A stretch of 56,218 nucleotides of DNA from a virus (IMGVR_UViG_3300021961_000121:1-56218); one strand, 5' to 3'. Counted from the first letter of the stretch, positions 18,728-50,880 are shown. Numbers and translations: made by a program. The notes: generated from the letters alone by a model not told the origin.

Positions 18728-18979
18728 TTAGGATAATTCGATAGAATAATTTCCTTCAGTACCTACTAATTTAGATGTACCAACAACAAACCCTTCAGGA
18801 AGTTCGATTTCAATTGAGATACCCTCTCTTGAACCTTTGTCCCAACCTGGATTGGGAAGACCCCATTCTGGTGTAGCTGCGTCAATAGTGAAATGTTCTT
18901 CACCTGCGTCTACGAATGAACCTACGCCGTTTGCGTATTCAACAACATTAGTGTCAATGCTTCTAACAAAATTAATCAT
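18728..18979 (-). CDS. Hypothetical late protein
   Basis: 83 aa; AAGGAG and late motif (19008-19015) upstream. Confidence 0.72.
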   Translation of the reverse strand: MINFVRSIDTNVVEYANGVGSFVDAGEEHFTIDAATPEWGLPNPGWDKGSREGISIEIELPEGFVVGTSKLVGTEGNYSIELS

Positions 18980-19037
18980 ATATTTCTCCTTTAATTGGTT
19001 AACCTCATATAAATATGGAAATAAAACTTTTTAATAC

Positions 19038-19065
19038 AAAAAAACCCCCACAAAAAGTGGGGGTT
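19038..19065 (-). terminator. Intrinsic terminator after tail tube gene
   Basis: Minus strand AACCCCCAC-TTTTT-GTGGGGGTT followed by T tract. Confidence 0.85.
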
Positions 19066-19097
19066 CTCATTTTCCAATTATTATTACAATCCGTATT

Positions 19098-19586
19098 TTA
19101 GTATTGTAAGATAGCGTAATCGTAAGTAAGTGTCAAATCAACTGTAGCAAGGTCTTCGCCGGTGTAGTCCATATCAGAGAACTTAGCGGTCTGAATGAAA
19201 GCACCTTTCAATGTCCACTCTTCTACTTTATCACCAACAGGACCCAAACTGTTGAATACGATGTCTTTTTTGTAGAAATCAGAGTATCCATCACGACCGG
19301 TTACTGATTCGTGGTGTAAACGAACCCATTCCATTACTGCTTGAGCAGCTGAAGGAACAACTGCGTCATAAAGAGTTACAGTGATATCAGACCATTCAGA
19401 ACGACCCTTAACATATCTACGGGTGTTGATGTGGTCAATAGTCACCTTACCATTTGTAATTTCAGGTCTGGCGGCTGTTTTCACCAAGTACGCGGGGATT
19501 CCCTCGATGTACATAATGAACCTATTTGACATTTTAGGTTCAAAGTTGGTGAACATAATTTCATTTGGGTCAAGTAATTGTGCCAT
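19098..19586 (-). CDS. Tail tube protein (T4 gp19-like)
   Basis: NRF..YIEGIP, W.DITVTLYD, YKKDI, EEWTLKGAF, LTLTYDYA; follows sheath gene. Confidence 0.9.
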   Translation of the reverse strand: MAQLLDPNEIMFTNFEPKMSNRFIMYIEGIPAYLVKTAARPEITNGKVTIDHINTRRYVKGRSEWSDITVTLYDAVVPSAAQAVMEWVRLHHESVTGRDGYSDFYKKDIVFNSLGPVGDKVEEWTLKGAFIQTAKFSDMDYTGEDLATVDLTLTYDYAILQY

Positions 19587-19630
19587 TTATATCTCCTATT
19601 GTCTTTCTAATAAATAGTAGTTTCTTTAAT

Positions 19631-21991
19631 TTATGCCCCTGGGAATGCAGCGCCGGTTGGTAAGATGTTGAAGTCAACGATGATGAATTCAGCAGTTTTG
19701 GCTGGTTGTAACCAAATCTCACCTACCATAATGTTTCTATCGATTACATCAGGAGTATTGTTAGTGTCATCCATTACCACTTTGAAAGCGTAAAGACCAT
19801 TTCTTTGTTGGATTGATTCCAAGTATGGGTTTACGATTGCCAAGAAGCGGTTTCTTGTAGCAGCGGTGTTGTTTTCGAACACCAAGTATCTTGTAGAAGA
19901 AGCGATATACTTCTTAACAGCAATCATCAATCTGCGAACATTGATTCTATCCAAAGCGGAAGGTTTAGCTTGTAGGGTCTTTTGACCGAATACAGTAGCA
20001 CCTTGACCAGGGAAGGTTGCGATTGGGTTGATTCTATTAGTGTAGAGTGTATCTCTTTCTTCGTGAGTCAAACGAGTTTTAACTTCGATAACATTTGACA
20101 AACCACCACGATTCAAACCGGCAGGAGCGTACCATTCAGCAGCAACTGAATCGTTGAAAGCAATTACGCCAGGAAGAACTACTGAAGGTGGAACCCAGAC
20201 AGGTTTGTTCTTGTCAGTATCAAGGATTTTAACCCAAGGGTGGTAAGTAGCAACATAGTTAGAGTCAAATGAACTCAAAGAGTTAACTACAACGGAGATT
20301 GAGTCGGAGTAAGCACCCCCATCCATCACATAGAAACAATCTTGTCTATCTTCACACATATCTTTAGCGTATGTAGTAACTGAAGAGTGTAATCTATTGA
20401 TGATACCAGGAGTTACAACCATATTGATGTCGAACTCATCAGGATTAGAGATAGCGTTGATAGCTTTTCTCATAGCAACCGTACCTGCGGCGGTAGCGGA
20501 AGAACAATCCAAACCTTGAGTATTACCAGCAACAATTGCGTTACCTACATTAACAACTCGGTTTGGCTCCCATCCATCAAAACCACCTTGGAAAGGTACG
20601 ATAAATTTCTTAGCATCAATGTCTGAAGTTAGTGTGATTGGAGAACCATTAGATTCACAATCAGCCAAATCAAAGTCAGAACCTACTTCTTCAGTAGCAG
20701 TAGTTGGTACTGGCATCAAGTAGTTTAAGTTATCCGTAGCGGAAAAATCAAAGTTGTAACCCAAATAAACTCTCTTATTGTACTCACTTGAGATTGATTG
20801 AGATACCACATATGAAGGACTTGGTAAAGCGTATCCTGATTGTAATGGTGAAGTCAATGCGTTGAATCCAAAAGGAACAAGTGTTGAATCAATTGAACCT
20901 GCGTCAACATTTGAGTCAACCTCAACACGAATATGTACTGAACCATTGGCGTAGTCACCATTTGATGTTAATTTACCATTAGCGTCAACAGTGATGTATT
21001 TGTCACCGATTACTCTCTTAATATAGTTTGGAGAATTAGGGTCAAGGTTAAGACCTGTAAACTCTTCTACAATGGCAGGTCGTGTGTCAGCGTCTTGAAC
21101 ACTTTGACCATAGATTGAATTAGGAACTTTAGAAGTGTCTACTCTACGAACTACAACAGAGAATGTACCATATTCAGAACCAGGAACTTCAGATGCTGGT
21201 TTGATATCACGGATACCTACTTTGAACTCATAGTTTGTAGCAGTTCCGTGAGAAAGAGTATGGAATCTGAACAAGTCAGTAGCAACACCACCAACTTTTT
21301 GGGACTTAATCCAAGGAGTTGAAGCGTGTTGATATGCTTGAGCGTATGATGTGTTAACAAAAGAAGCGGTTTGAACCAAAACAACCTCACCAGTAGCAAA
21401 AGATGCTGATTGGAAGGTAGAGAAGTTCAAGAAAGTGTAAGCTGCTTTTGAAGATTTAGGAGCGTATCCATACTGCTTTGTTAAGTAGTTAGCAGATGAT
21501 GGGTCTAATGAAGCGGTAATTGTTGTAGAAGTTACCGAATCACCTTTAATCTCTAATGAGAAGTTAGAAGCCGATACGACTAAAGTATCACCAGTAGTGT
21601 TATCGGTTACTAAAGAACCACTAAAGTCACCACCATTTGTTTGTGTAGTTGGGTGTAATACAGCACCAACATACTGACCGGCAGATGATGATAATACTAA
21701 TGCTACGGGCTTGGTTAATGTATAACCACTTGCACCTAAAACTCTAACGATGGTAGCAGACCCAGCATCTTCCAAATAAGCTTGTGCTGTGTATGGAAGG
21801 TATGAATCTTCAGTTAAACCACCGAAGTGTTGTGTAAATTCGTTAAATGATTCCACTTTTGTTGGAACAAAAGCAGGACCTTTGATAGTTTGTCCGATAA
21901 GAGCCGCACCAATCTCTGCAATACCTGCGGGTAAGAAAGAGAGGTCTTTTTCTCTTGTGAAGACGCCTGGACTAACAATTCTTTCAGCCAT
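19631..21991 (-). CDS. Tail sheath protein (T4 gp18-like)
   Basis: SPGVFTREKDLS, WYAPAGLNRG, RINPI, GQKT, DRINVRRL, FENN, PAKTAEFI. Confidence 0.95.
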   Translation of the reverse strand: MAERIVSPGVFTREKDLSFLPAGIAEIGAALIGQTIKGPAFVPTKVESFNEFTQHFGGLTEDSYLPYTAQAYLEDAGSATIVRVLGASGYTLTKPVALVLSSSAGQYVGAVLHPTTQTNGGDFSGSLVTDNTTGDTLVVSASNFSLEIKGDSVTSTTITASLDPSSANYLTKQYGYAPKSSKAAYTFLNFSTFQSASFATGEVVLVQTASFVNTSYAQAYQHASTPWIKSQKVGGVATDLFRFHTLSHGTATNYEFKVGIRDIKPASEVPGSEYGTFSVVVRRVDTSKVPNSIYGQSVQDADTRPAIVEEFTGLNLDPNSPNYIKRVIGDKYITVDANGKLTSNGDYANGSVHIRVEVDSNVDAGSIDSTLVPFGFNALTSPLQSGYALPSPSYVVSQSISSEYNKRVYLGYNFDFSATDNLNYLMPVPTTATEEVGSDFDLADCESNGSPITLTSDIDAKKFIVPFQGGFDGWEPNRVVNVGNAIVAGNTQGLDCSSATAAGTVAMRKAINAISNPDEFDINMVVTPGIINRLHSSVTTYAKDMCEDRQDCFYVMDGGAYSDSISVVVNSLSSFDSNYVATYHPWVKILDTDKNKPVWVPPSVVLPGVIAFNDSVAAEWYAPAGLNRGGLSNVIEVKTRLTHEERDTLYTNRINPIATFPGQGATVFGQKTLQAKPSALDRINVRRLMIAVKKYIASSTRYLVFENNTAATRNRFLAIVNPYLESIQQRNGLYAFKVVMDDTNNTPDVIDRNIMVGEIWLQPAKTAEFIIVDFNILPTGAAFPGA

Positions 21992-22061
21992 TATATTTCT
22001 CCTAAATTCAAAATTTGGTTTTCCTTATAATAAATACACCAAAAATTAGGGAAACGGATAG

Positions 22062-22343: not shown

Positions 22344-22384
22344 AACACTTGTATTAGTTTGTTTACAGTATAAATATGTAAAAT

Positions 22385-23751: not shown

Positions 23752-23755
23752 TTTA

Positions 23756-24919
23756 TTATCCTATATAAATTGGTCTTGGAACTTTAGCAAGAGTTGATTC
23801 TAAAAAGTCGGCCTCATCTCTTTTTGCTTCCATTTGAGCTCTACGAGATGTTGCCTCCAACACCTCTTTTAACTCGGTCAATAAGTTTTCTTTTTCAGCA
23901 GATGCTTCGTTACGAAGGTCAGCCCCATCCAAAGTTACATCAGAACCTGGAATAGGAATTGATGAGAATTTAGCACGCACCGCTCCTAACATTTCTTTAG
24001 CAAGAGCAAGCGTGTATCTGGCAATCCATTGTTTTCCGGCAGAATTAATCGAAGTGTATTGTAATCTTTGAAAAGGAACATTTGAAAGGTCACTCACCAC
24101 ATTTGATTTTGCAATAGGTGAGTTTGTTTCAGAGTCCAATGTGTATTCAAAGTGAACTTTTGTACCGGCGTCTGATGTTGATGGGATTGGAAACAATCTA
24201 ACACGCGTTCCATCAATATGAAATCCATATGATGATTTACGAATAAGGTCGTTGAACTCAATCGCTTGTAAACGAAGAAGGTCATCAAACATTGGTTGCA
24301 TCATAAATGATACACCAGGCGAATATGCTCCCCAACCGAATGTATTTAACATTTGTTGAGAACCCATACCCGTACCTACAAATGGGTCAAAGTATCTGAT
24401 AATTGCGGGTGGTTGGTAGTGATAGAATCTACGAATAGTCACACCATCAGTAACCGAACCACTTTCCAAATTTACAACATTACCATCACCAAGGTCATAA
24501 ATTTGTTGACCAGACGCCATTTCAAATGAACCAGTGTAGACAGTAACACGACCACCACTTAATGCTTCAGTACCATAATCTTTGGCAATGTTTACAACAC
24601 CCGCCATATTAGCGTTAATTTGTGTATCTCTCAAATCCAAATTCAAATCAGAACCTTGAAGAGATAACATATTCTCTTTGGCTCTATACTGATTTACTTG
24701 TGATGAGTATTCATTGGTTGCTTCTTCAAAACAAGTGAAGAAGTTGATGTCTTGCAATTCAATATCTACGATTGGGTATCCCAAACGCTTAGCGCACCAA
24801 TCAGCTACCTTCGGAGCGTCTGACGCGAATTGTGCTTCAGAATCAAAAAATCCGAATGGGGTAGATGTTCCGGCTGTAAATGAGCCCGAACCAGGCCAAA
24901 TTGGAATGTTAACTGCCAT
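23756..24919 (-). CDS. Neck/head-tail adaptor protein (T4 gp13-like)
   Basis: RLGYPIVDIEL, WIARYTLALAKEMLG..R.KF..IP.P...TLDG. Confidence 0.85.
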   Translation of the reverse strand: MAVNIPIWPGSGSFTAGTSTPFGFFDSEAQFASDAPKVADWCAKRLGYPIVDIELQDINFFTCFEEATNEYSSQVNQYRAKENMLSLQGSDLNLDLRDTQINANMAGVVNIAKDYGTEALSGGRVTVYTGSFEMASGQQIYDLGDGNVVNLESGSVTDGVTIRRFYHYQPPAIIRYFDPFVGTGMGSQQMLNTFGWGAYSPGVSFMMQPMFDDLLRLQAIEFNDLIRKSSYGFHIDGTRVRLFPIPSTSDAGTKVHFEYTLDSETNSPIAKSNVVSDLSNVPFQRLQYTSINSAGKQWIARYTLALAKEMLGAVRAKFSSIPIPGSDVTLDGADLRNEASAEKENLLTELKEVLEATSRRAQMEAKRDEADFLESTLAKVPRPIYIG

Positions 24920-24946
24920 TTAAACTCCTATACTATTATCTCACTA

Positions 24947-24954
24947 TATAAATA
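24947..24954 (-). promoter_or_regulatory. Putative late promoter motif TATTTATA
   Basis: 18-bp context (24940-24957) identical to 46947-46964. Confidence 0.65.
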
Positions 24955-28568: not shown

Positions 28569-31500
28569 TTAATAAGAACCACTAATGTAAGTTTCTACAA
28601 TCCAAATTTTATCACCGCTTTGATATCCGTGTTTTTTGAATGTAAGTTTGTTCAAAGAGTTGTTCCACTCAAAGTATCCACCGGCGAGGATATTACCCTT
28701 TTCACCAGAACCACCACCAACACCTTGAGCGCCGGCGCTACCACTATGACCTTGGTTACCTTTAGGGCCGGTATCACCAGCAGCACCGGTATTACCTTTA
28801 GGGCCAGTAGCGCCCGTTGAACCGGTAGCTCCCTTATTACCTTGAGCACCTTGGTTACCTTGAGGGCCCGTAGCACCCGTTGAACCGGTAGCTCCCTTAT
28901 TACCTTGAGCACCTTGGTTACCTTGAGGGCCCGTAGCACCCGTTGAACCAGTAGCTCCTTTATTACCATCTGCGCCAGTATTACCTTTAACACCTTGAGC
29001 ACCCACGGAACCAGTAACACCTTTGTTACCCACGGCGCCTTGAGAACCTTGAGAACCTTGAGAACCAATTGAGCCGGTTACACCTTTGTTACCAACGGCA
29101 CCAGTAACACCTTTAGGACCAGTACCACCTGTCGAACCTTGAGCACCCGTATTACCTTGAGCGCCAGTATTACCTTGAGGACCAGTACCACCTGTCGAAC
29201 CTTGAGCACCCGTATTACCTTGAGCGCCAGTATTACCTTGGGGGCCTGTGGCACCGGTTACACCTTTTGCACCCGTATTACCTTGAGCGCCTTGGTTACC
29301 TTGAGGACCAGTAGCACCAACCGAACCTTGAGCACCGGTTGCGCCCGAATTACCTTTAGCACCTTGAGCACCCGTAGCACCACCTGAACCAGTTATACCC
29401 TTGTTACCACTTGCACCTTGAGGACCTTGGTTACCTTGTCCACCACCAGCACCACTAATGTGGGTTGTATTTTTAACAATGGAAAGACCTGTTACATATC
29501 GTGCACCTGGGGTACTACCACCAGGGGTGTATCCCACATACCAACTGAATGTACCATTTGAATCCGCCGGAGATGTGATTGTATATTTTCTTCTTTCCCA
29601 AGTAAGCGTTTGTCCTAATTCTGCGTGGTATAATTGATATGAAGAAATTAATGTTCCAGTTTCATAGCCAGTAGCGACATTGTTTGCGGTATTATTAGCA
29701 AACATTCTCATATGGAACATACCGGTGTTTCCAATCCAATCAGGAGTAATAGCAACCCACAATTCACAAGTGTATTGTGTTGATGGTTGAATACCTTCCG
29801 ATATGTATACTTCATATTCAGTATTAGTACCACCCGAAGTGTTTTGTTCCATTACAAAGCCAGACCTACCACTTTCAGGGTTGTTAGCTAATGGAATTAC
29901 TATGTTTGTAGGATTTGAAATGGATTCATATCCAGGGTCCAATTGTCCATCAGAGAAGAATGGATTACGAACGGCGTTACCATCCGAACCAAGTACACCT
30001 TTAGGACCAGTACCACCGGTTACACCTTTAGGACCAGTAGCACCAGCCGAACCCGTTACACCTTTAGCACCTTGAGCGCCCGTAGAACCAGTTACTCCCT
30101 TATTACCAGCAGAACCTTGAGCACCTTGTGGGCCAGTAGCACCCTGATTACCCGTGGCACCTTTGTTACCTGCGTCACCGGTATTACCTTTAACACCTTG
30201 AGCACCTGTGGAGCCAGTTACACCTTTATTTCCGGCAGAACCTTGAGCACCTTGAGAGCCCTGGTCACCTTGAGCACCTTGAGGACCAGTAACACCGGCA
30301 GAACCTTGAGCACCTTGAGCACCTTGAGAACCTTGTGGACCTTGAGCGCCCGTGTTGCCTGTGTTACCTTTATTACCTTGCGGACCAGTAGCACCTGTTG
30401 AACCCGTAACACCTTTATTTCCGGCAGAACCTTGAGCACCTTGAGAACCCTGGTCACCTTGAGCACCTTGAGGACCAGTAACACCGGCAGAACCTTGAGC
30501 ACCTTGAGCACCTTGAGAACCTTGTGGACCTTGAGCGCCCGTATTACCTTGAGCACCTTGGTTACCTTGAGGACCGGTAGCGCCTGTTGAGCCGGTGACA
30601 CCTTTATTACCGGCAGAACCTTGAGCACCTTGAGGACCAGTAGCACCACCAACTCCAATAACACCTTTATTACCAGCAGAACCTTGAGAACCTTGAGCAC
30701 CTTGAGAACCCGTTACACCTTTTGCGCCAGTATTACCTTGAGCACCTTGGTTACCTTGAGGACCGGTAGCACCAACCGAACCTTGAGCACCCGTATTACC
30801 TTGAGCACCTTGGTTACCTTGAGGACCGGTAGCGCCTGTTGAGCCGGTAACACCTTTATTACCAGCAGAACCTTGAGCGCCTTGAGCACCTTGAGAACCC
30901 GTTACACCTTTAGGACCAGTCGCACCTTGAGCACCTTGGTTACCTTGAGGACCGGTAGCGCCTGTTGAGCCAGTAACACCTTTATTACCAGCAGAACCTT
31001 GAGAACCTTGAGCACCTTGAGAACCCGTTACACCTTTTGCGCCAGTATTACCTTGAGCCCCTTGAGGACCTTGAGGGCCGGTCGCACCCGTTGAACCGGT
31101 AACCCCTTTGTTACCACTTGCACCCGTAGCGCCTTGTGGACCTGTAGCACCTGTGACACCCTTTGGACCTGTATTACCGGCAGCACCTTGAGCACCTTGT
31201 GGTCCTTGAGCACCTTGTGGTCCTTGAGCGCCAGTATTACCTGCCGAACCTTGAGAACCAAGAGAACCCATATTGCCTGAACGACCAATTTCAAATCCGT
31301 GTTGATACCAAGTACCACCGGCCGATTCGGATGGTCGTTTCCAATATATTCTTAAACCTTCACCACCACCATATTCTTGTGTTCTAACTCGTATTGAATA
31401 TGCAGTATTCGCAGTTAGTGAAATTGTTCCCGTAGTAGTTCCAAGTGCAGGAGTTCCCCTACCACCATAAAATGAAGCTACTACCGTATTATTAATTATC

Positions 31501-34409
31501 AATTCAACCGAATCATCCGATTCTGCGGTGAATGTATATGTACCTGTTTCTGAAGGATAGAATGTACCCCATACTTGAACTGCGAAGTATGACCCAACAT
31601 TTGGGACTCCGATACCAGCACCTGTCAATGTGGTATATGATGTCCAATCAAGTAATACGCTTCTATTAGAAATACCCTGCGAATATAAAGTGGAGTTTGT
31701 GTAATTCGCATCAAAAAATTTATTGAAATCATTACTATCTGTTGGATAGTAATAATATTGTGATGTAGAACCATTTCCGGCGTGAGTAGACCATACTTCA
31801 TAATTTAAAGTATCATATCCAAACAAACTTCCCTTGTTACCACTAGCGCCAGTAACACCTTTGTTACCTTGAGGACCGGTAGCGCCTGTTGAACCTTGGG
31901 CGCCAGTATTTCCCGCAGCACCTTGAGCACCTTGAGAACCCTGGTCACCTTGAGCACCTTGGGGGCCCGTATTACCGGCTGCGCCTTGAGCACCTTGAGG
32001 ACCTTGAGGGCCCGTAGCTCCTTGGTTTCCAGTAACACCTTTATTACCACTTGCGCCCGTAGCACCTTGTGGACCTGTAGCACCTTGGTTACCCGTAACA
32101 CCTTTATTACCCGCGGCTCCAGGATTACCATCTTCACCAATTCCACCTTGAGCGCCCGTGGAGCCGGTAACACCTTTGTTACCACTTGCACCCGTAGCAC
32201 CTTGAGGACCTGTAGCACCCGTGACACCTTTTGGACCTGTATTACCAACAGCGCCAGTAGAACCTTTAGGACCTTGACCACCTTGAGCACCGGTTGAACC
32301 AGTTACTCCCTTATTACCAGCAGAACCTTGAGCACCTTGTGGGCCAGTAGCACCTTGGTTACCGGTAGCACCTTTGTTTCCAGCTGCACCTTGAGGTCCT
32401 TGTGGGCCTTGTGGACCTTGAGCGCCGGTTGAACCTTGTGGGCCTGTAGCACCTGCTGCCCCTTGTGGGCCAGTTGGACCAGTCGCACCTTGGTTACCGG
32501 TAGCACCTTTGTTTCCAGCCGCACCTTGAATACCTTGAGCACCTGTAGCGCCTTGAGGACCAATTGGACCAGTAGCACCTTTTGGACCTGTATTACCGGC
32601 AGCACCTTGAGCACCTTGTGGTCCTTGAGCACCTTGAGGGCCGGTAGCACCTTTGTTTCCAGCAGCACCTTGAGGACCTTGGTTACCGATAGCCCCACCG
32701 GCTCCGGTGGCAGGTACACCATTATGACGCATAAATTTAACATCATAGAATGCTGACCCTGCGGTGTACATTGATGAATCTAAATAAAATGTTAGACCAG
32801 TACCGGCATATACAGTTCTTACTAAAAAGGTTTGAGCCGTAGAAGAATCATATACAAAGTATCTAATATATCCATCTATATGGTAGTGGATGAAAAATAT
32901 ATCAGCATTCGCCTCATATGGTCCAAAGAATTCACCACGATACGCACCATTTTCGTAAATTTGAGCATAGTTTCCGGCGTGTGGATACCAAGCATAGTCA
33001 ATTGAAGAATAAGATGCGTCTGTGGTTGGGTCAGTATTAAGACCCATCATTTTATATGTACTTGTGTTACATTTGAATGATACTAAAGCTCCATCAGAAA
33101 TACCTTGGTCAGAATACGCCTGAGTAGACCAACCACTTGCGTTTGGAGCGTCTATATTATATAATTGTGGACTACCATTTTGGTTTACATTGACTACCGT
33201 ACCACTCGTACTTATGGTGTAGTCGGCAGCGTTCGCACCTGTAGCACCTTGAGCACCTTGAGGACCTGTTGGACCAGTACCGCCTTGAGGGCCGGTAGCA
33301 CCTTGAGGACCGGTTGGTGATGGTCCTTGAGCACCTTGAGAACCTTGAGCACCTTGAGGTCCTTGAGCACCTTGAGGTCCTTGAACACCTTGAGGTCCTT
33401 GAGCACCTTGAGGTGAAGAACCGGTATTACCTTGAGCGCCCGTTGGGCCTGTTGGAGCAGAACCTTGAGCGCCCGTTGGGCCTGTTGCCCCAGCTGGACC
33501 ATTAGCACCTTGTGGGCCAGTAGCACCTTGTGGGCCTGTATTACCTTTAGACCCCGTACCACCTTGTGGACCAGTAGCTCCCGTAACACCTTTAGGACCT
33601 TGTGGGCCTGTTGGACCACTGGGTCCTGGAGCAGTATCTGGATCTAAACCATAACATTCTTCGCAGTTCGGATGCCATTCCATAACTTCCGCACCACAAT
33701 CGTATGGTGATTCCGGTTGATATCCTTCAACGAACCAACATTGTTCAGGGTCATATAAGTTAGGTGGTAATTCACCCTCATTACATTCGGGACCACTACA
33801 CGGACCAGGCATTAATTTAACATAGCTCGCAACGGGTGGGTCTATATTAAAACAATCAATGACTTGGACATTCATTCCTGAATCAGGAGGACCACAATCA
33901 GGCATACCACGGAACAAATACAAAGAGAACCCAGGTGGATTGTGTACAATGTAGTTGTTTAATAGGTAAACATCGACATCTTCAATGTCAATTGTCGTGA
34001 TTGTTTGATTTTGTAATGTATAAACTGAAGTGATTAATTCTTCAGTAATGACTCCATCTTCAAATTTGATTAAGGAGTCAGTATTAACACTAATGTCATT
34101 AGCGTATATAAATTTGTATGTACCACTACCATCCTTAATAAGGATTTTTTGATACAACCATACAATTATGTTACCACCATTAATTTCAAGTGTATCATAA
34201 GTGTTTGGGAATGTATATGCTTTTCGGACTGACGCTGAAGTGAGTGATGTAGAAGAAATATCAGTAGAAGTCCAAGTTTTCCAATCCGATTCGTTTAAAC
34301 CAAGACCAGGTAACTGAACACCCGCTACTAATGACCCACTTACAAGATTTTCTACGACTATTGATGATGAATCATATAATCGTACTAATTGTCCGTTTTT
34401 TACGCTCAT
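28569..34409 (-). CDS. Collagen-like fibre protein A: Hint domain, Cys-rich domain, four Gly-X-Y blocks separated by three globular domains (one PA14), short C-terminal domain
   Basis: ...[14 protein letters not shown]|P at aa 157; 8-Cys segment; long GXY runs; PA14 motif [27 protein letters not shown]. Confidence 0.88.
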
Positions 34410-34424
34410 ATTATATCTCTTCTA

Positions 34425-37400: not shown

Positions 37401-38213
37401 TACTGCTCCTTGAGCACCCGTAGCACCTTGTGGACCTTTAGGACCAACAGGACCTTGTGCACCTGTAGCACCTTGAGCACCAGTCGGACCGGCAGCTCCA
37501 GCCGCACCTTGAGGGCCGGTAGCACCTTGAGGGCCGGTAGCACCTTGAGGACCGGTAGCACCTTGAGGACCTTGATAACCTTGAGCACCGGTAGGACCAG
37601 TTGGACCGGTAGCACCTTTAGCACCTTGAGGGCCGGTAGGACCATCAGCACCTTTAGCACCTTGTTGACCTTGAGCTCCTTGAGGACCTTGAGCTCCTTG
37701 AGGACCTTGTGCACCTGTAGCACCTTGAGCTCCTTGGGGACCGGTAGGACCTTGACCACCTTGAGCACCTGTAGCACCTTGTGGGCCGGTAGGACCTGTT
37801 GGACCAGTGGGACCTGTGTTGTGAAGGAGGACTCCACCAACATAATAGTTGTGGTCAGGTTCTACTTCAATGGATATAAAATATGTCGGGTCTTCTACAT
37901 ACGATACCGATAAAATTTCAATATCGTTATGAAGAGTTGTATTATTATTGTATGCGTTTATCGGAGAAACCCAATCGCCCATTAGGGAAAGGACTTTGGA
38001 ATCTACTGATAAGTTGGATGTTGTACCATCCGAAAATTTTACTTGGATGTAGTCGTTTAATTCTCTATGGAATACGCTTACTACTTTGTTTTCTCTAACG
38101 GAACGAGTTGATAAATCATAACCCTTTACGGTATCACCAACTTGGATATTAGAAATAGGTGTAAGAACTCCGTTGATTTCAAGTAAAGTGTCTTTATGTA
38201 AACCGTGTATCAT
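34425..38213 (-). CDS. Collagen-like fibre protein B: Hint domain, about 1,090 aa of periodically interrupted Gly-X-Y, short C-terminal domain
   Basis: I..IQVGDTV...[12 protein letters not shown]|TGPTGPT at aa 132; GAQ/GPQ/GAT repeats. Confidence 0.88.
34570..37390 (-). repeat. Degenerate coding tandem repeat, mostly 60 bp (20 aa)
   Basis: Successive 60-nt lines align in register from about 34570 to 36540; unit G[AS]SP[QT] plus five GXY triplets, with 17- and 23-aa variants further 5'. Confidence 0.9.
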
Positions 38214-39662: not shown

Positions 39663-41114
39663 TTATTCTACATAGATGAAGATGTCACCAAGGGTAACAC
39701 GGATGTTACCATTGTAACGATAGTTAGCATCATCAGTAGTAACAACAGCTACAGCGTAAGCATCGGCACCGATTGTAGTTTGTTCAGAAACAGCGCCTTC
39801 AAAGTCAAATGCCCAACGAGAAGCGGACTGGTCCCAACCAAATGCAGTACCTTTACCTTCAACAACGATACCAGCATCAGCAGGAACACCTTGGTCGTTG
39901 AGAGAGATAAATTGGTCTTCAACTTCCAAATTAGTAGTTGAAATTGTAGTAGTTGTACCATTTACAGTCAAGTCGCCAGTCAATGTCAAAGATGCGAATG
40001 TTGGTGAATCACCAGATTGAAGACCGGTATCAACATCAGTTTGAACACCATTGATTGTAGCACGAACTGTACCTTGAGAAGGTGAAGAGAACGCTGAAGC
40101 GGAAACAACACCCTCGGCTGCCGTGATAGTCAATGTATTACCAGACATTACAGTAACAATACCATTACCACCTGCAATAGTTAATGCTTCTTCATTGTCA
40201 ATTACACCAGTACCAGTATCACCGTTTATATCCAAATCATAACTGGTTGAAACAAGAGCAGCAATGTCAGCAGCAATAGATGCTGAAGTTGATACGAATG
40301 CGCCAGAGATATCAGTTTTAGTAGCTGAAGCAAACATTACAGTGTCAATAGCACCAGCAGCGATATTTGCAGTCAAAGAAATGTTTGCACTACCATCAAA
40401 AGAAACACCTGTTGCAGTTACATCACCACCTGAAAGTGCGATTGTTCTTGCAGTAGCCAATACTGAAGCACTTGCAGCAGTACCAGTTGTATTTTGGTTA
40501 CCAGCGGTGTTTACACCTGGCAAGTTGATGTTAGCAGTACCATTGAATGATACACCACCAATTGTTCTTGCAGTTTCTAAAGCCGTAGCAGTAGAAGCAT
40601 TACCACGCAATGAACCGGTAATTCCTGTTAAAGAAATTTGGTCATCGAGGTTTACAGTAAGTGTATTAGTAGACCCCACAGTGGTGATGTTTGTACCACC
40701 TGCGATAGTAAATTGTTCTTCGTTTGTAATTACACCAGTACCACTATCACCACCAAAATCCAAATCGTAGCCAGTAGCTATGATACTTGCGATGTCAGCA
40801 GCAATAGATGCTGAAGTTGATACGAATGCACCAGAGATGTTTGTCTTGGTAGCAGATGCGAACATATTGGTGTCAATAGCACCAGTAGCAATATTCGCGT
40901 TTAATGTGACATTACCAGTACCATCAAAACTAACGCCTGTTGCGGTTACATCACCACCCGAAAGTGAAAATGTTCTTCCTGTTGCTAAGGCGGTAGCGGT
41001 AGAGGCATTGCCCGTTACATTACCTGTCAAGTTACCAGTAAATCCACCTGGTGCTTGAACCGTGTTTAGTACCGCGTTTGACCCCGATACTATGACTTTT
41101 TTCCATTCAGCCAT
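39663..41114 (-). CDS. Tail/virion fibre protein
   Basis: GNASTATALATGRT / ATALETARTI repeats, LTVNGTTTTI...VEDQFI.LN motif; AAGGAG SD. Confidence 0.75.
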   Translation of the reverse strand: MAEWKKVIVSGSNAVLNTVQAPGGFTGNLTGNVTGNASTATALATGRTFSLSGGDVTATGVSFDGTGNVTLNANIATGAIDTNMFASATKTNISGAFVSTSASIAADIASIIATGYDLDFGGDSGTGVITNEEQFTIAGGTNITTVGSTNTLTVNLDDQISLTGITGSLRGNASTATALETARTIGGVSFNGTANINLPGVNTAGNQNTTGTAASASVLATARTIALSGGDVTATGVSFDGSANISLTANIAAGAIDTVMFASATKTDISGAFVSTSASIAADIAALVSTSYDLDINGDTGTGVIDNEEALTIAGGNGIVTVMSGNTLTITAAEGVVSASAFSSPSQGTVRATINGVQTDVDTGLQSGDSPTFASLTLTGDLTVNGTTTTISTTNLEVEDQFISLNDQGVPADAGIVVEGKGTAFGWDQSASRWAFDFEGAVSEQTTIGADAYAVAVVTTDDANYRYNGNIRVTLGDIFIYVE

Positions 41115-41217
41115 TTTAATTCTCCTTTGTTTGTGTTAACACTTAAATAAATTGATATATCAATCGAAACTTGTTTTTAATCTCTAATAAGTATATCTGA
41201 CATCTCTAAAAATGGTT

Positions 41218-43290
41218 TTATTCGATTCCAAAATAAAATTCAGAACCAGAATAGAATATAGCACCACCAATTGCAGTAGGTGTTGTACTCATATTTGAAA
41301 GTACAATCATAGAACCACTAAATGAAGATGCCGTAATTGCATTTGTTGTAAATGAGCCAGAATCAGTTACTTGTTGTAAAGTACCAATACCACCACCTAC
41401 ACCACCACTACCAAACCCACTTGCAGCAGCAGATGCTGAAATGTATGAATCGGTAATTATGTTTGTAATGAATGATGGGTTAATGTAAGACGCAGTTAAA
41501 GCATTTATTGAGTTTTCGGCCCAAGATGATGTTCCAAATAACGAACCGGTAAATGATAAAGCTTCTACATTACCCAATACAAGTAAAGAACCCGTAAACT
41601 GATGTGTATCTCCTAAACTATCACCAAACATTGTAGACCCACTTGAGAACAAGGTAGTCATATATGTGATTGATGATGATACGATGTATGTTTCTGCGGT
41701 AATTGTATTTACCACCAAATCTTGACCAAAAAGGTTGGTTAGGATTTGAGCGGATGAACTTACAGTTCCAGCAGGAATAGTAGAACCGCCACTTCCAAAT
41801 CCAGCTGCAGCAGCGGATGCTGAAATAAAGGTTGGGTCAATGTAAGATGCGGTTAATACATTTTCAGCCCAAGATGATGTTCCAAAAAGAGAACCTGTAA
41901 AATCAGTTGCGATTATTGAACCGGTTACTTCTATATTATTATTAAAAGCAAACCCAAAACCACCGGCAACAAATGTAAGACCACCATTAGTTGTATTTTC
42001 TTCAATAGCATTAGTATAAAGAACATCATCAGTAATAATATAACCAGTAACATCAATCCAACCATTAACTTGTTGGTTTCCTTCAAATGTATTTGAACCT
42101 GTGGTGGCAACAGATGATGTAAACGCATTAAATGATGATGTATTTAATTTAGTATCGTATAATGTATTTATATCATCATTTGCAGATGCAGTAAATGCGT
42201 TTAGTGCAGAAATGTCGGTAGCAGTTCCAAATCCAGCTGCAGCAGCGGATGCCGAAATAAAGGTATCGGAGATAAAAGAGGCAGTCAAAGCACTCAACAC
42301 ATTCAGCGATGAAGTTTGAGATACTAATATGTATGAACTTGTAGCCGAATTTAATGCATCTAAACTCGTTTGAGCAGAGCCCGTAAAGTTATTAAGTCCA
42401 AGAAGGTCAATCGATTCTAAAGATACAATTCTACTCTCAAATCCACCTGAAATTGATGTAAACGCACCTGAAACATTGGTGATTAATGCGTATGAACTTG
42501 TAGCAGCTGTTAATGAGTCAACCTCACTTTGGATTGAACCTGTAAATGTATTAAGTGAAGAAATATCAGTATGCGATGAACTGATAAATCCTAAATCGGT
42601 AATTTGTTGAGATGATGATATAACACCAGATGGTAAGGTAGACCCAGTTGGGAGTGTTACCGTGTTACCATTTGAAATAGATAACTGGTCACCTACAATA
42701 GATAAAGTTTGTGAATCAGTTTCAGAAGTTAGATACGATGATGTAGCCGCAATCAAAGCGTCAATTTGAGCTTGAGCAGAACCACTAAAGTTGTTAAGAG
42801 CGGTGATGTCGGTATGTACACCCTCACCACTACCAAATCCACTTGCGGCAGCAGATGCTGAAATATAGGCATCTGTAATTATTAATTCAACTTGAGCTGA
42901 TGAACTTATAGTTCCGGCAGGAACTTCAGTCAAATAAGAACTTGTAGCTGAATTTAATGCGTCTAAACTTGTTTGAGCTGACCCCGTGAATGAATTAAGG
43001 GCGGATAAGTCAGTTCCACCTGAAGATGGAAACTCAAATGTAGCAAATGATGCTGAGTTTTCGAAACCACCATATCCTGGAGTTTCAAATGCTATAAATC
43101 GAGAAGCAACATATAGTTGATTCTCACTTTTTACATAGATGATTTGACCATCTAACAACCTATCTTCATAGATTGCGGCCATATTTGAAGCAGATGCTAC
43201 GGTAATCCATCCACCTTGAACATATTCAATGGAGGTAAACGAGCCCGATGCCCCACTTCTTACATAAATATCACCTGCGGTAGTTGCCAT
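41218..43290 (-). CDS. Ser/Thr-rich virion fibre protein with internal repeats
   Basis: ISASAAA[SA]GFG four times, repeated LN.FTGS.Q...D.L..ATSSY, FTGSLFGTSSWAEN twice. Confidence 0.72.
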   Translation of the reverse strand: MATTAGDIYVRSGASGSFTSIEYVQGGWITVASASNMAAIYEDRLLDGQIIYVKSENQLYVASRFIAFETPGYGGFENSASFATFEFPSSGGTDLSALNSFTGSAQTSLDALNSATSSYLTEVPAGTISSSAQVELIITDAYISASAAASGFGSGEGVHTDITALNNFSGSAQAQIDALIAATSSYLTSETDSQTLSIVGDQLSISNGNTVTLPTGSTLPSGVISSSQQITDLGFISSSHTDISSLNTFTGSIQSEVDSLTAATSSYALITNVSGAFTSISGGFESRIVSLESIDLLGLNNFTGSAQTSLDALNSATSSYILVSQTSSLNVLSALTASFISDTFISASAAAAGFGTATDISALNAFTASANDDINTLYDTKLNTSSFNAFTSSVATTGSNTFEGNQQVNGWIDVTGYIITDDVLYTNAIEENTTNGGLTFVAGGFGFAFNNNIEVTGSIIATDFTGSLFGTSSWAENVLTASYIDPTFISASAAAAGFGSGGSTIPAGTVSSSAQILTNLFGQDLVVNTITAETYIVSSSITYMTTLFSSGSTMFGDSLGDTHQFTGSLLVLGNVEALSFTGSLFGTSSWAENSINALTASYINPSFITNIITDSYISASAAASGFGSGGVGGGIGTLQQVTDSGSFTTNAITASSFSGSMIVLSNMSTTPTAIGGAIFYSGSEFYFGIE

Positions 43291-43306
43291 CTAATTATTC
43301 TCCTTG

Positions 43307-46961: not shown

Positions 46962-46980
46962 GTAAGATTTTCTTCGGAAC

Positions 46981-47646
46981 TTATTGGTACGAATACAATA
47001 ATTTCAAGACCTCATCAAGCGCTTCGTGGCGATGGTTGTCTTTAAGAGTCGTTGTATATACATATCTCGAATCTTTTAATTTCGGAACTTCGTGGATTGC
47101 TGAATCGTTTGAAAACTTCAAGTCAATTTGTTGAGGGTCGCCTGTGAGAATCATAGTAGAACCTTTACCCAATCTACCTAATACCATTGCAAGTTGTTGT
47201 TTAGTTAAATTTTGGAATTCATCCACAATACAAATTGCGTTATCAAATGTTCTACCTCTAAAGTGAGTGAGAGATACTAACTCAACATTTTCATCTTTTT
47301 CCATTCTATCCAAAACATCAGGTTTATTGTAAACCTTTCTCATATTGGAACGGATTGGAACTAACCAAGGTTCTAATTTTTCTTCAAGTGAGCCGGGAAG
47401 GAATCCGTTATCTTCATTTGAAACCGTTGGTCTTGTTATAATGATTTTATTTATTTGTCTTTTAAAGAACGCATCCAACGCAACTTGAACTGCGAGTAAG
47501 GTTTTACCACTACCGGCCTTTCCTAATACAAAATTAAATGGATGTTGGAGGATTTGTGATTTTGCAACTTTTTGTTCTTCTGATAGGGAGAGTGAGAATT
47601 TAATATCACCCTTTGGTACTCTCTTTTCTACATTTTCTGCAGCCAT
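46981..47646 (-). CDS. phoH: PhoH-family ATPase
   Basis: GKAGSGKTLLA, ITRPTV, GFLPG, RGRTF, DEFQN, GDPQQIDL. Confidence 0.95.
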   Translation of the reverse strand: MAAENVEKRVPKGDIKFSLSLSEEQKVAKSQILQHPFNFVLGKAGSGKTLLAVQVALDAFFKRQINKIIITRPTVSNEDNGFLPGSLEEKLEPWLVPIRSNMRKVYNKPDVLDRMEKDENVELVSLTHFRGRTFDNAICIVDEFQNLTKQQLAMVLGRLGKGSTMILTGDPQQIDLKFSNDSAIHEVPKLKDSRYVYTTTLKDNHRHEALDEVLKLLYSYQ

Positions 47647-47703
47647 ATATTTCCTTCCGTTGAGGGGTGTAACATTGTTTAATATAAGTATCCAATGGGT
47701 AAT

Positions 47704-47732
47704 AAAAAAGGGGGTCGAAATCGACCCCCTTT
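47704..47732 (-). terminator. Intrinsic terminator after major capsid gene
   Basis: AAAGGGGGTCG-ATTT-CGACCCCCTTTTTT on minus strand. Confidence 0.9.
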
Positions 47733-47757
47733 AGTAAAGATTATGTTAATCTCTCAA

Positions 47758-49401
47758 TTAAGAGAAGATTTCCAAACCGTGAACATATACTTTACCGTAG
47801 AACTCACCACGAACCATTTGCTTGGCGTAACGAGTCATCACACCTTTTCTTGGTTGGAAGTTCTTTGGGTCGTATACCAAAGGAGTCATAATCAAAGGAA
47901 TGTAAGGAGCGTATACAGCACCAGTTTCCAAGAATTGTGAACCTTTGAAGCCCATCAAGATAACATTTTCTTGCATATATGGGTTCTTGTAAACTTCGTA
48001 ACGATTAGCGAACGAACCTACTTGAGAAACACCCATAGCAAACTTCATTTCGTTACCAGTACCACTTGCAGCGAAACCTGGGATAGATTCCAATACAGTA
48101 GCTACATCAGGAGAAACAACCATAAAGTTAGCACCACCACGCATTGTCTTGGCGTGAATTTGGTTAGAAACTCTCTGAAGTTGAGTACCCAATGTCTGGA
48201 ACCACTGCTGTTGAGTGTAACGCTCAACTGCGGCGTTCAAGCCAGAAGATGTGAAGCCAGTACCATTCCAAGAGTAACCGATACGAGCAGACCAGTAACC
48301 AGTAGTTAAGGCGTTCTCCATCAACATATCCAAGATTTCGAGGTCGATTTCTTGAGAGATGTACTCTGACAACATTGAAGTCAATTCGGCTTCAGCGTCA
48401 ATTGAGTGGTAAGCGTTCAAATCTTGAGCGAATTCAGGAGTCCATTGTGCCTTCAACTTACGGGTCTTAGCAACGATAGGTACACTTCTCAACTCAACAT
48501 TCAATTCAGGAATACCCAAGTCAGTTTCAGGGTTAGCACCAAAACCAGCGGTAGTTTGTTCGAAATCACCACGAGTGATGTCAGTTGGTTGCTTTTGGTA
48601 GTAAACACCATTGATGTCACCAGCAACACCTGATACTGAAGCAACCATAGTCAACAAACCAGCAGCGTTGAGTTTAGTGAATTGGTTGTAAGTAGTAACG
48701 CCAGAACCTGACAATACGAAAGCTTTTACACCTTCAGCATCATAACCATCAAGGTCACGAGAAGCTGACATTTGAACTACGAAGAACTCGTCACCAGCAA
48801 CAACACCAGGACCATATACTGAAGCAGACCAAGCAGTATCGTAATCGTAGTTAGCAACGGCTAAAGATGATGTAGTGAACTTGTCAGTTGCATCAGCGGC
48901 AGCTAAAGCCAAAGCTTGTGAAGTTTGGTTGATAGTGTAACCGAAACGGCCAGCACCATACAAACCACCAGAAGCTTGGTCAGCAGTTTCGGTAACACCG
49001 AATACAGAGTCAGCTTGTGAGTTTTTACCAGCACCAGTAGTGAAACCGGCTTGTTCAGTACCATACTTGAAATCCAAGTAGAATACAAGACCAGAAGGTA
49101 AGTTCATAGGTTGTACGCTAACGAACTCTTTTGCAGCGATTTCGCTGAAGATACGGCGTACTAATGGAAGAGCGACACCAGCCCACTCTTCAGAGTTTGC
49201 AGAAGTACCAGTAGCAGAAGCTTCAGATACTAATTGCTTTGCTTGGTTTTCCAACAAAGTGGCGATACCAGCTCTTTCGAAATCGGTAGAAATACCTTCC
49301 AAAAGACCAGTTTTTTCCCACTTGGCTACGAGGCCTTTAGCTTCGTCAGCCATTTTTTTGTTGAAACCAGCAGATTCATTTAATAAAGAATTTGTGTTCA
49401 T
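47758..49401 (-). CDS. Major capsid protein (T4 gp23-like)
   Basis: LLENQ, LPLVRR, VQPMNLPSGLVF, AKTRKLKAQWTPEFAQDL, YAPYIPL, FQPRKGVMTRY. Confidence 0.96.
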   Translation of the reverse strand: MNTNSLLNESAGFNKKMADEAKGLVAKWEKTGLLEGISTDFERAGIATLLENQAKQLVSEASATGTSANSEEWAGVALPLVRRIFSEIAAKEFVSVQPMNLPSGLVFYLDFKYGTEQAGFTTGAGKNSQADSVFGVTETADQASGGLYGAGRFGYTINQTSQALALAAADATDKFTTSSLAVANYDYDTAWSASVYGPGVVAGDEFFVVQMSASRDLDGYDAEGVKAFVLSGSGVTTYNQFTKLNAAGLLTMVASVSGVAGDINGVYYQKQPTDITRGDFEQTTAGFGANPETDLGIPELNVELRSVPIVAKTRKLKAQWTPEFAQDLNAYHSIDAEAELTSMLSEYISQEIDLEILDMLMENALTTGYWSARIGYSWNGTGFTSSGLNAAVERYTQQQWFQTLGTQLQRVSNQIHAKTMRGGANFMVVSPDVATVLESIPGFAASGTGNEMKFAMGVSQVGSFANRYEVYKNPYMQENVILMGFKGSQFLETGAVYAPYIPLIMTPLVYDPKNFQPRKGVMTRYAKQMVRGEFYGKVYVHGLEIFS

Positions 49402-49433
49402 CTTATTAATCCTTTTCTTTAGGTTTTTTAAAT

Positions 49434-50444
49434 TTACTTAATTAAACCAGCTAACTTCTTAAATCTATCAGCTACAGCAGTACCTTCAGAAATGATTTTC
49501 TTTGGTGCGCTTGACTTTGTAGGTTTAGAAGCGAGTGATTCTTTAACAACTGTTTTAGGTTTGCGAGCAACATTCAAGTTTTCACCCAATGTAGCGTAAA
49601 CCAATTTTACTTCTCTTAAAGATGCAGCTCTATCGAAGTTCTCGATAACTTTCATCTTTTGGCCTTCGTTCAAATCGAAAGTTCTGAACAACTTGTTGGT
49701 GTAAAGAAGTTTAGCGTTCAACAAATTAACTTCGTTGATTGTCTTCTTCAAAGATGTGATAACTCTATAAGCTTCTTCCAACTCTGCAGCGGTTTCATCT
49801 TCTTCAGTTACTTCTTCTTCTTCAGTTACTTCTTCTTCATCTGCCATTTCCTTCAAGGTACGGATGATTTCGTTGATGTCTAATTCTTCTTCATCTTCAG
49901 TTACTTCTTCACCTTTTTCGGCATCACCATCAAGGTCCATACCCATTTCAGCTTCAGCATCTTCCAACTCATCTTCTTCAGATACAACTTCTTCATCGTC
50001 ACCTTCAAGTGCAGCTTCCAACTCAGCGATTACTGATTCGAGGTCGAGTTCATCTTCTTCGGTGTCTTCTTCTTCAGCACCGGTCAAGTCGTACTCTTCA
50101 CCATCTTCTTCAGAACCCATCTCTGTAGCGTCTTCACCTTCGGCGGCCATCTCTTCTTCAGCTTCTTCACCTTCTTCAGTCATATCTTCTTCAGATACTT
50201 CCTCTTCAGAACCCATCTCATCTTCAGAATACATTTCTTCTTCTTCCATTGCGGGTACTTCAGCGGTCATATCTTCTTCAGATACTTCTTCTTCATCTTC
50301 TAACTCTTCAGCGAGTTTGTGAGATAACATAGATTGAAGTTTTGGTGTGAAAGCTTCTTCAAGAGCCATTTTAGCGTTTGCTAATGCAGTTTCCTTAACG
50401 GCTTTGGCATCAGCGATTGCTTCTTTTAACAAATCTGATTTCAT
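49434..50444 (-). CDS. Prohead core/scaffold protein
   Basis: Highly acidic, many [VLI]xE sites, directly upstream of MCP; AGGAG SD. Confidence 0.82.
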   Translation of the reverse strand: MKSDLLKEAIADAKAVKETALANAKMALEEAFTPKLQSMLSHKLAEELEDEEEVSEEDMTAEVPAMEEEEMYSEDEMGSEEEVSEEDMTEEGEEAEEEMAAEGEDATEMGSEEDGEEYDLTGAEEEDTEEDELDLESVIAELEAALEGDDEEVVSEEDELEDAEAEMGMDLDGDAEKGEEVTEDEEELDINEIIRTLKEMADEEEVTEEEEVTEEDETAAELEEAYRVITSLKKTINEVNLLNAKLLYTNKLFRTFDLNEGQKMKVIENFDRAASLREVKLVYATLGENLNVARKPKTVVKESLASKPTKSSAPKKIISEGTAVADRFKKLAGLIK

Positions 50445-50598
50445 TTGTTTTTCTCCTAAATTAACTTTTGGGATAATAAGATTATTCGGAATCTTAATAG
50501 AATATAATACTTTTCAAATAAGTAAACCACCCATTAAGGGGTGGTATTTTTAGTAATAAATATGGGAACTTTTTTTAAAACAATAGAGTGTTTACCAT

Positions 50599-50880
50599 TT
50601 ATTCCTCACGGCGTCTACGAACCCACTCCGCTCTCAAAGCAAGATTTCTCTTTTCTCTTCTTACCGTAGTTGGTTTCTTGTACTCTTTGTTATCTTTGAT
50701 AGCTTCAATGATTCCACTATCTTTCATAATGCGTTTCCAAGCTCTAATAGCGGCTTCCACATTGTTGTTGATAACTTTAACACCATTAGCGTGACCATAG
50801 AGATACATCTCTTGTCTTGGTGCTTTTTTCTTTTTGTCGTTGTTGTTACGACCTTCGTGTTGTTTTTGGTTTTCTTCCAT
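50599..50880 (-). CDS. rpsU: Phage-encoded ribosomal protein bS21 with N-terminal extension
   Basis: VKVINNNVEAAIRAWKRIMKDSGIIEAIKDNKEYKKPTTVRR fits the bS21 pattern V.V..E.ALR.FKR....G......E.YEKP. Confidence 0.85.
   Translation of the reverse strand: MEENQKQHEGRNNNDKKKKAPRQEMYLYGHANGVKVINNNVEAAIRAWKRIMKDSGIIEAIKDNKEYKKPTTVRREKRNLALRAEWVRRRREE

Follow-up and report, generated by a model that had tools for sequence, protein, structure and literature searches.

Ribosomal protein bS21 and Shine-Dalgarno-led late genes in a family of T4-like phages: a possible switch in ribosomal mRNA selection

The window analysed here is the whole of one IMG/VR virus record (IMGVR_UViG_3300021961_000121:1-56218), 56,218 bases judged 29% complete, which Pfam and PHROG scans assign to a T4-like myovirus and which carries every gene on its minus strand. 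Among its virion genes lies a gene for ribosomal protein bS21 (rpsU), in the company of genes led by Shine-Dalgarno (SD) sites. An initial annotation had proposed that this bS21 frees the anti-SD of a Bacteroidota host ribosome, which would favour translation of SD-led late mRNAs. The background it drew on, sequestration of the anti-SD by bS21, bS18 and bS6 (PMC7797042) and late-expressed bS21 in Bacteroidetes phages (PMC9723584), is indeed reported in the literature.

Shine-Dalgarno sites and promoter classes in the window

The two modules of the window, the bS21 gene and the SD sites are as follows; TATTTATA is a late motif described below.

2-9916, minus strand: early (replication) module with nrdB, dnaB, a 5'-3' exonuclease gene, a recA/UvsX-like gene, gp32, polA-like pieces and small open reading frames (ORFs), mostly without SD (Pfam, PHROG, SD energy)
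2-283, minus strand: nrdB
291-295, minus strand: AGGAG before nrdB
353-1711, minus strand: dnaB
10004-55856, minus strand: late (virion) module (Pfam and PHROG scans)
18986-18991, minus strand: AAGGAG SD of an 83-aa gene (18728-18979), with TATTTATA at 19008-19015
19593-19597, minus strand: AGGAG SD of the tail tube gene (19098-19586)
21999-22003, minus strand: AGGAG SD of the tail sheath gene (19631-21991)
24925-24929, minus strand: AGGAG SD of the neck/head-tail adaptor gene (23756-24919), with TATTTATA at 24947-24954
41122-41127, minus strand: AAGGAG SD of a tail-fibre gene (39663-41114)
43300-43305, minus strand: AAGGAG SD of a 690-aa fibre-region gene (41218-43290)
49410-49414, minus strand: AAGGA SD of the gp23-like major capsid gene (47758-49401), spacing 8
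50453-50457, minus strand: AGGAG SD of the scaffold-like gene (49434-50444), spacing 8
50599-50880, minus strand: bS21 (rpsU) gene, 93 aa

All eight AGGAG sites listed in the initial annotation were recovered at their positions on the coding (minus) strand, 5-9 nt before an ATG. Over the whole window the string AGGAG shows no excess (70 matches versus 78 +/- 8 in shuffles); 8 of its 41 minus-strand copies fall in the 5-nt slot before one of 47 starts, where about 0.2 would be expected. SD strength was scored as the pairing energy to the anti-SD core ACCUCCUUU over positions -20 to -4, with a cut-off of -5 kcal/mol or lower. This level was reached by 16 of 33 late genes and 3 of 13 early genes, against a background of 11.6% among 1023 same-strand ATGs that are not starts. 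Early and late genes differed in energy (Mann-Whitney p 0.013); Fisher tests at single cut-offs did not reach significance (p 0.05-0.26), the window having just 13 early genes. The exceptions conceded in the annotation are real: SD-type motifs precede three early genes (nrdB, AGGAG; gp32, AAGGA; a 129-aa gene, GGAG), and 17 late genes fall short of the cut-off, including the baseplate hub, 93-aa, 2-oxoglutarate (2OG)-oxygenase, first collagen-like fibre and protease genes. The bS21 gene itself has no SD, as the annotation had said (pairing energy +2.1). Complementarity to the anti-SD core, a place 5-10 nt before the start and a higher frequency than at non-start ATGs all characterize these sites, and a positional peak of the motif at -12 to -9 is seen only in bS21-carrying genomes. 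The SD pattern in the window is real and extends to a large phage family.

The late motif TATTTATA (variants ATATTTAT and TATTTATT) stands 15-111 nt before 12 genes of the virion module, bS21 included, and also directly before a 616-aa gene of the early module. Its enrichment upstream of genes is 22-fold in the window, 5-fold in the relative Mel-JY01 and 10-fold in Flavobacterium phage immuto, and it reads as a putative late promoter. The late promoter element of T4 has the consensus TATAAATA. An early-type promoter, consisting of TTG, 19-21 nt and then TAnnTTT(G/A) or TATATTAG, precedes dnaB, gp32, two small early genes and a methylase gene.

1719-1748, minus strand: TTG-N19-TATATTTG, 7 nt before the dnaB ATG, near-leaderless
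4725-4755, minus strand: TTG-N20-TATATTAG, before gp32
9177-9207, minus strand: TTG-N20-TAGATTTA, before a 90-aa gene
9927-9957, minus strand: TTG-N20-TATCTTTA, before a 111-aa gene
52276-52306, minus strand: TTG-N20-TATATTTG, 5 nt before the ATG at 52270 of an SD-less methylase/I-TevI-like gene inside the late module

The primary sigma factor of Bacteroidia is reported to use a -33 element TTTG and a -7 element TAnnTTTG, the latter at -12 to -5 (PMC6847099, PMC9723704). The corresponding pattern TTG-19-21 nt-TAnnTTTG is strictly matched by two of the five window promoters (1719-1748 and 52276-52306), the other three being one-base variants, and the early promoters as a group appear to be of the Bacteroidia sigma-A type. 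Promoter and ATG are 5-10 nt apart in three of the five, so that their mRNAs would be leaderless or nearly leaderless. Enrichment of simple patterns (TAnnTTTG, TATAAT, TTG-N-TAnnTTT[GA]) was only about 2-fold and gave no discrimination, which clade-specific full-length patterns did provide: TTGCATA-N15-17-TAnnTTTG occurs 14 times in Mel-JY01 versus 0.1 in shuffles, TTTGG-N18-20-TATATTAG 14 times in the complete related genome G001 versus 0.13, and TTG-N19-21-TATATTTAGG 16 times in immuto versus 0. Early genes of immuto (for example 67589-73778) share a long conserved promoter and leader, TTG-N20-TATATTTAGGTATCAATAATTAAAAC, about 10 nt before the ATG.

Genes were then sorted by the promoter directly in front of them in four bS21-carrying genomes (the window, G001, G002 and Mel-JY01) and in immuto, which lacks bS21. 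Behind early-type promoters an SD was present at 1/5 genes in the window, 1/17 in G001, 0/7 in G002 and 2/16 in Mel-JY01, a total of 4/45 that equals the background level. Behind TATTTATA the figures were 4/9, 8/20, 8/27 and 12/20, respectively, or 32/76 together. In immuto no SD was found at any of 13 early-promoter genes or 28 TATTTATA genes. SD use is therefore split by temporal class, and the split is repeated in four genomes, which bears out the earlier proposal that SD sites favour late genes.

Besides the genes listed above, the late module contains baseplate, glycosyltransferase and 2OG-oxygenase genes, two collagen-like and further fibre genes, phoH, a DNA methylase gene, the head protease gene and core genes. 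The methylase at 50948-52306, between the head genes and bS21, carries an I-TevI-type DNA-binding domain as a fusion partner. The gene, preceded by an early-type promoter of its own and probably starting at the near-leaderless ATG at 52270, is not present at this place in Mel-JY01 or immuto and may be a mobile insert. The two collagen-repeat genes (28569-38213) are very long, 1946 and 1262 aa, with a local G+C of 0.49-0.56 versus about 0.37 elsewhere; the first carries a PA14 domain and the second a weak pretoxin-HINT match. In the early module, a weak family-A DNA polymerase signal within 5245-8367 is confined to a 419-aa ORF with a TTG start, and the 616-aa ORF before it has no family match; together they may be a split or highly diverged polymerase. 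A tRNA search of the window found none, and an Rfam scan of it at the gathering cut-off returned no family.

The phage bS21 and its association with SD use

The annotation's assignment of the 93-aa product to bS21 holds (PF01165, 35.7 bits versus a cut-off of 27 over residues 34-83; 35.9 bits in the genome search), and the product also matches phrog_21469. The protein consists of a Lys/Arg-rich N-terminal extension of about 32 residues followed by the bS21 core. Translation must start upstream of Met25, since that residue is not conserved in relatives. In a MAFFT alignment of 14 phage and 12 Bacteroidia sequences, ungapped through the Tyr54 region, K49 and A81 are invariant, the core motif K69-P70-T71 is present, and Arg83 occupies the column of Tyr54 with Trp86 three residues on; the Arg that the annotation had placed at the Tyr position is thus where it was said to be. 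The residue-54 assignments in the main clade rest on this alignment and on a count anchored at KPS. Among sampled Bacteroidia bS21, Tyr stands at KPS+12 in 32 of 33 and an aromatic residue at +15 in none. The phage family has a conserved Trp or Tyr at +15 and 13-34 extra N-terminal residues rich in Lys and Arg that end in a conserved (L/I)(Y/P)G, and Mel-JY01 has no aromatic residue after KPS and a short, non-basic extension. Beyond KPT the window protein has a net charge of +5 and those of the main clade one of +5 to +7, overlapping the range of -1 to +8 (mean +3.2) in the 33 Bacteroidia proteins.

A phmmer search of PDB found a gammaproteobacterial-type bS21 as the best match (E 4e-5); the Flavobacterium johnsoniae protein 7jil_z aligned without gaps (residues 39-80 to 10-51) at E 0.93. 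The phage bS21 is non-Bacteroidia in character. Two assignments were set aside on these grounds: that of a Bacteroidia-type, anti-SD-sequestering bS21, given Arg83 in the Tyr54 column, and that of a host-mimicking bS21 of the kind described by Chen et al., given the same residue and the two E values.

The leader of the bS21 gene is also distinctive. An SD is missing in 36 of 37 distinct bS21 upstream regions, locus L084 being the exception, while 31-85% of neighbouring genes are SD-led. Two elements lie in the leader.

50929-50936, minus strand: TATTTATA late-promoter-like motif, 48 nt before the bS21 ATG, invariant in 16/16 aligned bS21 upstream regions
50900-50929, minus strand: 12-bp hairpin then a U run, between the late motif and the bS21 start, beginning at the last base of the motif

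RNAalifold applied to the 16 upstream regions kept 10 of the 12 hairpin pairs through changes on both sides. Throughout the window's subclade an invariant TATTTAT(A) is directly followed by the hairpin and U run before bS21, with the same placement in loci L026-L067. The hairpin is plausibly a terminator against upstream transcription. Transcripts of an overlapping promoter would evade it by starting within its 5' arm, which would leave the gene's own late promoter as the only source of bS21. A similar order of motif and hairpin is found before the scaffold gene (50555-50562 in the window, then ACCACCC...GGGTGGT).

The co-occurrence of bS21 and SD use was examined in the best 80 of 319 viral contigs matched by the capsid protein, with bS21 detected by a six-frame search using a family profile. 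bS21 lies about 1.3 kb before the capsid gene in 55 of these loci, all of which have SD fractions of 0.31-0.85. All 14 loci without bS21, each with at least 3 kb of upstream sequence present, have SD fractions of 0-0.14; the remaining 11 loci could not be judged for bS21. Capsid and scaffold genes are both SD-led in 24/24 distinct bS21-carrying lineages versus 0/10 bS21-less ones. Over whole genomes, SD fractions are 0.44 in the window, 0.26 in Mel-JY01 and 0.23 in both G001 and G002, and 0.04 in immuto, below its own background of 0.13. The comparison that the annotation had called for, of SD use in phages with and without bS21, therefore yields close relatives that lack both. A tblastn search of a phage collection with the bS21 protein gave no match and is uninformative, since it missed the Mel-JY01 homologue.

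Among unrelated phages, 42 viral loci were found with a Bacteroidia bS21 alignment. SD fractions are 0-0.17 in contigs with a Bacteroidia-like bS21 (Tyr, Phe, Trp or His at position 54); this group behaves as host mimics in the sense of Chen et al. Nine with a canonical basic bS21 have SD fractions of 0.32-0.79, most with an SD on the bS21 gene too, and look like phages of SD-reading hosts.

Host and proposed mechanism

By capsid identity the cultured relatives are Mel-JY01 (58%), immuto (54%) and Rhodothermus phage RM378 (39%). The secretion system of type IX (T9SS) is described as confined to Bacteroidetes (PMC5445135, PMC7906972), and its C-terminal sorting domain PF18962 was found in immuto and in 5 of 13 bS21-carrying related records, namely G001 and G053 (the same 993-aa ORF), G004, G054 and G057; a control search of 14 well-known genomes gave none. 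No PF18962 was found in the 56-kb window fragment or in Mel-JY01. The T9SS-tailed phage proteins are 993, 519, 247, 536 and 245 aa long (for example G001 L109:11522-14479 and immuto W02:13186-13410), as if exported by the secretion system of the host. A genome scan with the G001 protein found no cellular relative, so that no host genus can be named. G001 further encodes two Mom-family proteins, a DruA-like protein, GroEL, thymidylate synthase, a NeuB/epimerase sugar cluster and a carbamoyltransferase. Early promoters, T9SS domains in relatives, cultured relatives and SD-less early genes make a Bacteroidota host likely for the clade, and promoters and kinship suggest one for the window itself. 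The Bacteroidota host assumed in the initial annotation is accordingly very probable, the nearest bS21-less cultured relative being a Flavobacterium phage.

The reading preferred here is that the phage bS21 makes SD-blind host ribosomes read SD sites and thereby favours late mRNAs. It is the best single explanation, built on correlation and on mutants of the host protein, and is held tentatively, at somewhat less than an even chance. Bacteroidota host ribosomes would hide the anti-SD and ignore SD sites, and early genes with host-type promoters would be translated like host genes, either leaderless or through A/U-rich SD-less leaders. Late in infection bS21 would be made from an SD-less mRNA with its own late-type promoter and would take the place of bS21 on the host 30S subunit, where it would fail to hold the 3' tail of 16S rRNA in the bS21/bS18/bS6 pocket or would actively favour the SD-anti-SD helix. 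A pool of SD-responsive ribosomes would build up, preferring SD-led virion mRNAs and disfavouring SD-less host and early mRNAs. For the active part of the protein, the family-wide Lys/Arg-rich N-terminal extension would be a better candidate than the Tyr-to-Arg change.

Several observations weigh against this proposal. A quick capsid tree splits the bS21-less rows between two positions, with two changes per trait and only one independent pair on well-supported branches, and an approximately unbiased (AU) test did not reject a single clade of the bS21-less, SD-less relatives (p 0.47). The 69/69 concordance could therefore be one event, for instance a change of host; the co-occurrence of bS21 and SD use may thus be a single evolutionary event, and no claim of repeated co-evolution is made. 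A second sample, the best 80 of more than 647 relatives of the LR756508 capsid, gave 35 loci with at least 3 kb upstream. Of its 18 loci with bS21, 14 have SD fractions of at least 0.42 and four of 0.05-0.27; of 17 without detected bS21, 13 have at most 0.11 and four have 0.24-0.36. LR756508 itself (capsid 54%) has the family bS21 in the same place, with Met in the Tyr column and no N-terminal extension, and an SD at only 4/26 genes versus a background of 0.23. Loci L084, L090 and L360-L388 carry SD sites on most genes (0.44-0.85) and a strong SD on bS21 itself, and their hosts may read SD. Like its presumed clients, the bS21 gene is driven by a late promoter, so that the protein could not act ahead of them. 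Mel-JY01, the closest relative in culture, has Microcystis as its recorded host. Its early promoters (for example at 63040, 68717, 69086, 69448, 143094 and 143674 of PP395634, recorded on Microcystis elabens) have the Bacteroidia sigma-A consensus and not a cyanobacterial -10 box, and a Bacteroidota bacterium in the culture may be its real host.

The same relatives speak against the cause put forward in the initial annotation, namely loss of the Tyr. L102, L327, L328, L330 and L340 combine a retained Tyr and the N-terminal extension with SD-led genes (0.37-0.56), and all three features are missing from L396, L351 and L322; with the Tyr-less LR756508 also lacking SD enrichment, Tyr loss is not the determinant of SD use. 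With the exception of L403, whose start is uncertain, all distinct proteins with an extension of at least 13 residues go with an SD fraction of at least 0.31. The Lys/Arg-rich extension may thus track SD use better than Tyr loss does, a lead that comes from few independent lineages. The pairwise read-out of residue 54 was gap-shifted in some rows (AIRKEY ends, for example, are printed as Y), and several bS21 ORFs lack an ATG, so that the N-terminal lengths of L354, L356, L361-L363, L370, L381 and L388 are untrusted. A more specific form of the proposal, which we regard as doubtful, is that the phage builds its own class of ribosome in an SD-blind host, the N-terminal tail lying at the site of the SD-anti-SD helix and switching SD recognition on, so that the tail and not the lost Tyr is active. 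If true, one small protein would both switch translation from early to late and shut off the host.

The SD-led phages of the clade could instead infect hosts that read SD natively and match them in their SD sites. Virion genes, being highly expressed, would have the stronger sites, and bS21 would serve an unconnected purpose such as the completeness of ribosomes during infection. Such a host difference agrees with the single event allowed by the AU test, with four SD-enriched loci that lack bS21 in the available DNA (L332, L336, L357 and L376), with the relatives that have SD sites on nearly all genes, bS21 included, with the SD fractions of unrelated phages carrying canonical bS21 and with the cyanobacterium recorded for Mel-JY01. 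It is nevertheless unlikely, because SD use at background level on early-promoter genes is unexpected in an SD-reading host, the T9SS sorting domains and the Bacteroidia sigma-A-type promoters (in Mel-JY01 the TTGCATA type) point to Bacteroidota, and Jha et al. report strong SD sites on only 0.2-1.7% of genes across all five Bacteroidetes classes that they surveyed (PMC7797042). Alternatively, the SD sites might act without the phage protein, through a natural pool of bS21-lacking ribosomes or one enlarged by shut-off of host rpsU, and the phage bS21 would have another role, such as replacing decaying host bS21 or tuning elongation or hibernation. F. johnsoniae is reported to hold a substantial population of such ribosomes, which perform better on the SD-led rpsU mRNA (PMC13000457, PMC9976891), and the bS21-carrying relatives without SD sites indicate that bS21 is useful without them. 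This seems distinctly unlikely, however, as a phage bS21 that acted like the host protein would do away with the ribosomes on which SD-led mRNAs depend, and yet bS21 and SD use occur together, and none of the 14 bS21-less close relatives uses SD.

That the purine motif is not an SD at all, AGGAG/AAGGA being instead recognised by an RNA-binding protein or nuclease of the phage or reflecting the composition of late leaders, is very improbable. The lack of AGGAG enrichment window-wide and the A runs that often flank the motif would suit it; the fixed place 5-9 nt before the start codon, the peak at -12 to -9 restricted to bS21-carrying genomes, the complementarity to the anti-SD core and the conservation of the motif across diverged upstream sequences of orthologous genes all speak against it.

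The preferred reading, action of the phage bS21 on SD-blind ribosomes, makes a directional prediction: supply of the phage protein should raise SD reporters and lower SD-less ones, and reporter, in vitro translation and cryo-electron microscopy systems exist for F. johnsoniae. Natural controls are also at hand among the phage bS21 proteins, some of which have the N-terminal tail while others lack it, and in which residue 54 can be Tyr or Arg. If the reading is true, a virus alters the rule by which the host ribosome selects mRNAs by exchanging one protein, which would account for SD sites in phages of hosts that have purged them.

Comparison with known systems

Jha et al. (2021; PMC7797042) described how bS21, bS18 and bS6 sequester the anti-SD, in an arrangement where Tyr54 stacks on A1534. 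In F. johnsoniae, McNutt et al. (2023; PMC9976891) report that the bS21 changes Y54A and C-terminal truncation raise translation of a strong-SD template 3- and 5-fold, respectively, and lower that of SD-less mRNAs; exchange of phage bS21 onto ribosomes appears in that account as speculation only. The rpsU autoregulation of F. johnsoniae resembles the present proposal in that the same ribosomal site is concerned and recognition of SD sites is gained, and efficiency on SD-less mRNAs lost, when ribosomes have no sequestering bS21. It differs in that the switch there is the absence or mutation of the host bS21 and serves one gene, rpsU, whereas here a foreign bS21 would create an SD-reading state for dozens of phage genes. 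Among the rpsU loci sampled here, the Flavobacteriia loci L247, L248, L278 and L256 carry the published extended SD (for example GAGAGGAGGTG), and many other sampled Bacteroidia are without it.

The bS21 of freshwater Bacteroidetes myophages reported by Chen et al. (2022; ISME Commun 2:31, PMC9723584) is likewise found among virion genes, and it is described as expressed late, in Bacteroidetes hosts, and argued to mimic and replace the host protein. All 61 of those bS21 proteins are reported to keep Tyr or another aromatic residue at position 54, and SD-led late genes are not described in the passages of that report consulted, whereas the window protein has Arg at position 54, a C-terminus that may be more basic, a long basic N-terminal extension and SD-led late genes around it. 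The Pelagibacter phage HTVC008M is, as here, a T4-like phage with a bS21, reported to assemble into a heterologous ribosome (Mizuno et al. 2019, cited in PMC9976891); unlike here, its host is not known as SD-blind, and no temporal split of SD use is known to have been reported for it. In Francisella tularensis, exchange of bS21 paralogs changes the mRNA preference of the ribosome, much as proposed here, though these proteins are cellular and not viral and the leader feature given in the source is not SD/anti-SD unmasking (PMC9578407).

Closest to the window are immuto (MW353176) and Mel-JY01 (PP395634), which belong to the same T4-like family with collinear modules and the same TATTTATA late motif. 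Mel-JY01 has its bS21 in the same place as the window and an SD at 26% of genes; immuto differs from the window in having no bS21, and an SD at 4% of its genes versus a background of 13%. A literature search, with supplements outside its scope, turned up no paper in which a non-sequestering phage bS21 is connected with late genes led by SD sites. Phage-encoded bS21 as such is already known; its possible link, in a non-sequestering form, to SD-led late genes is the proposal made here.

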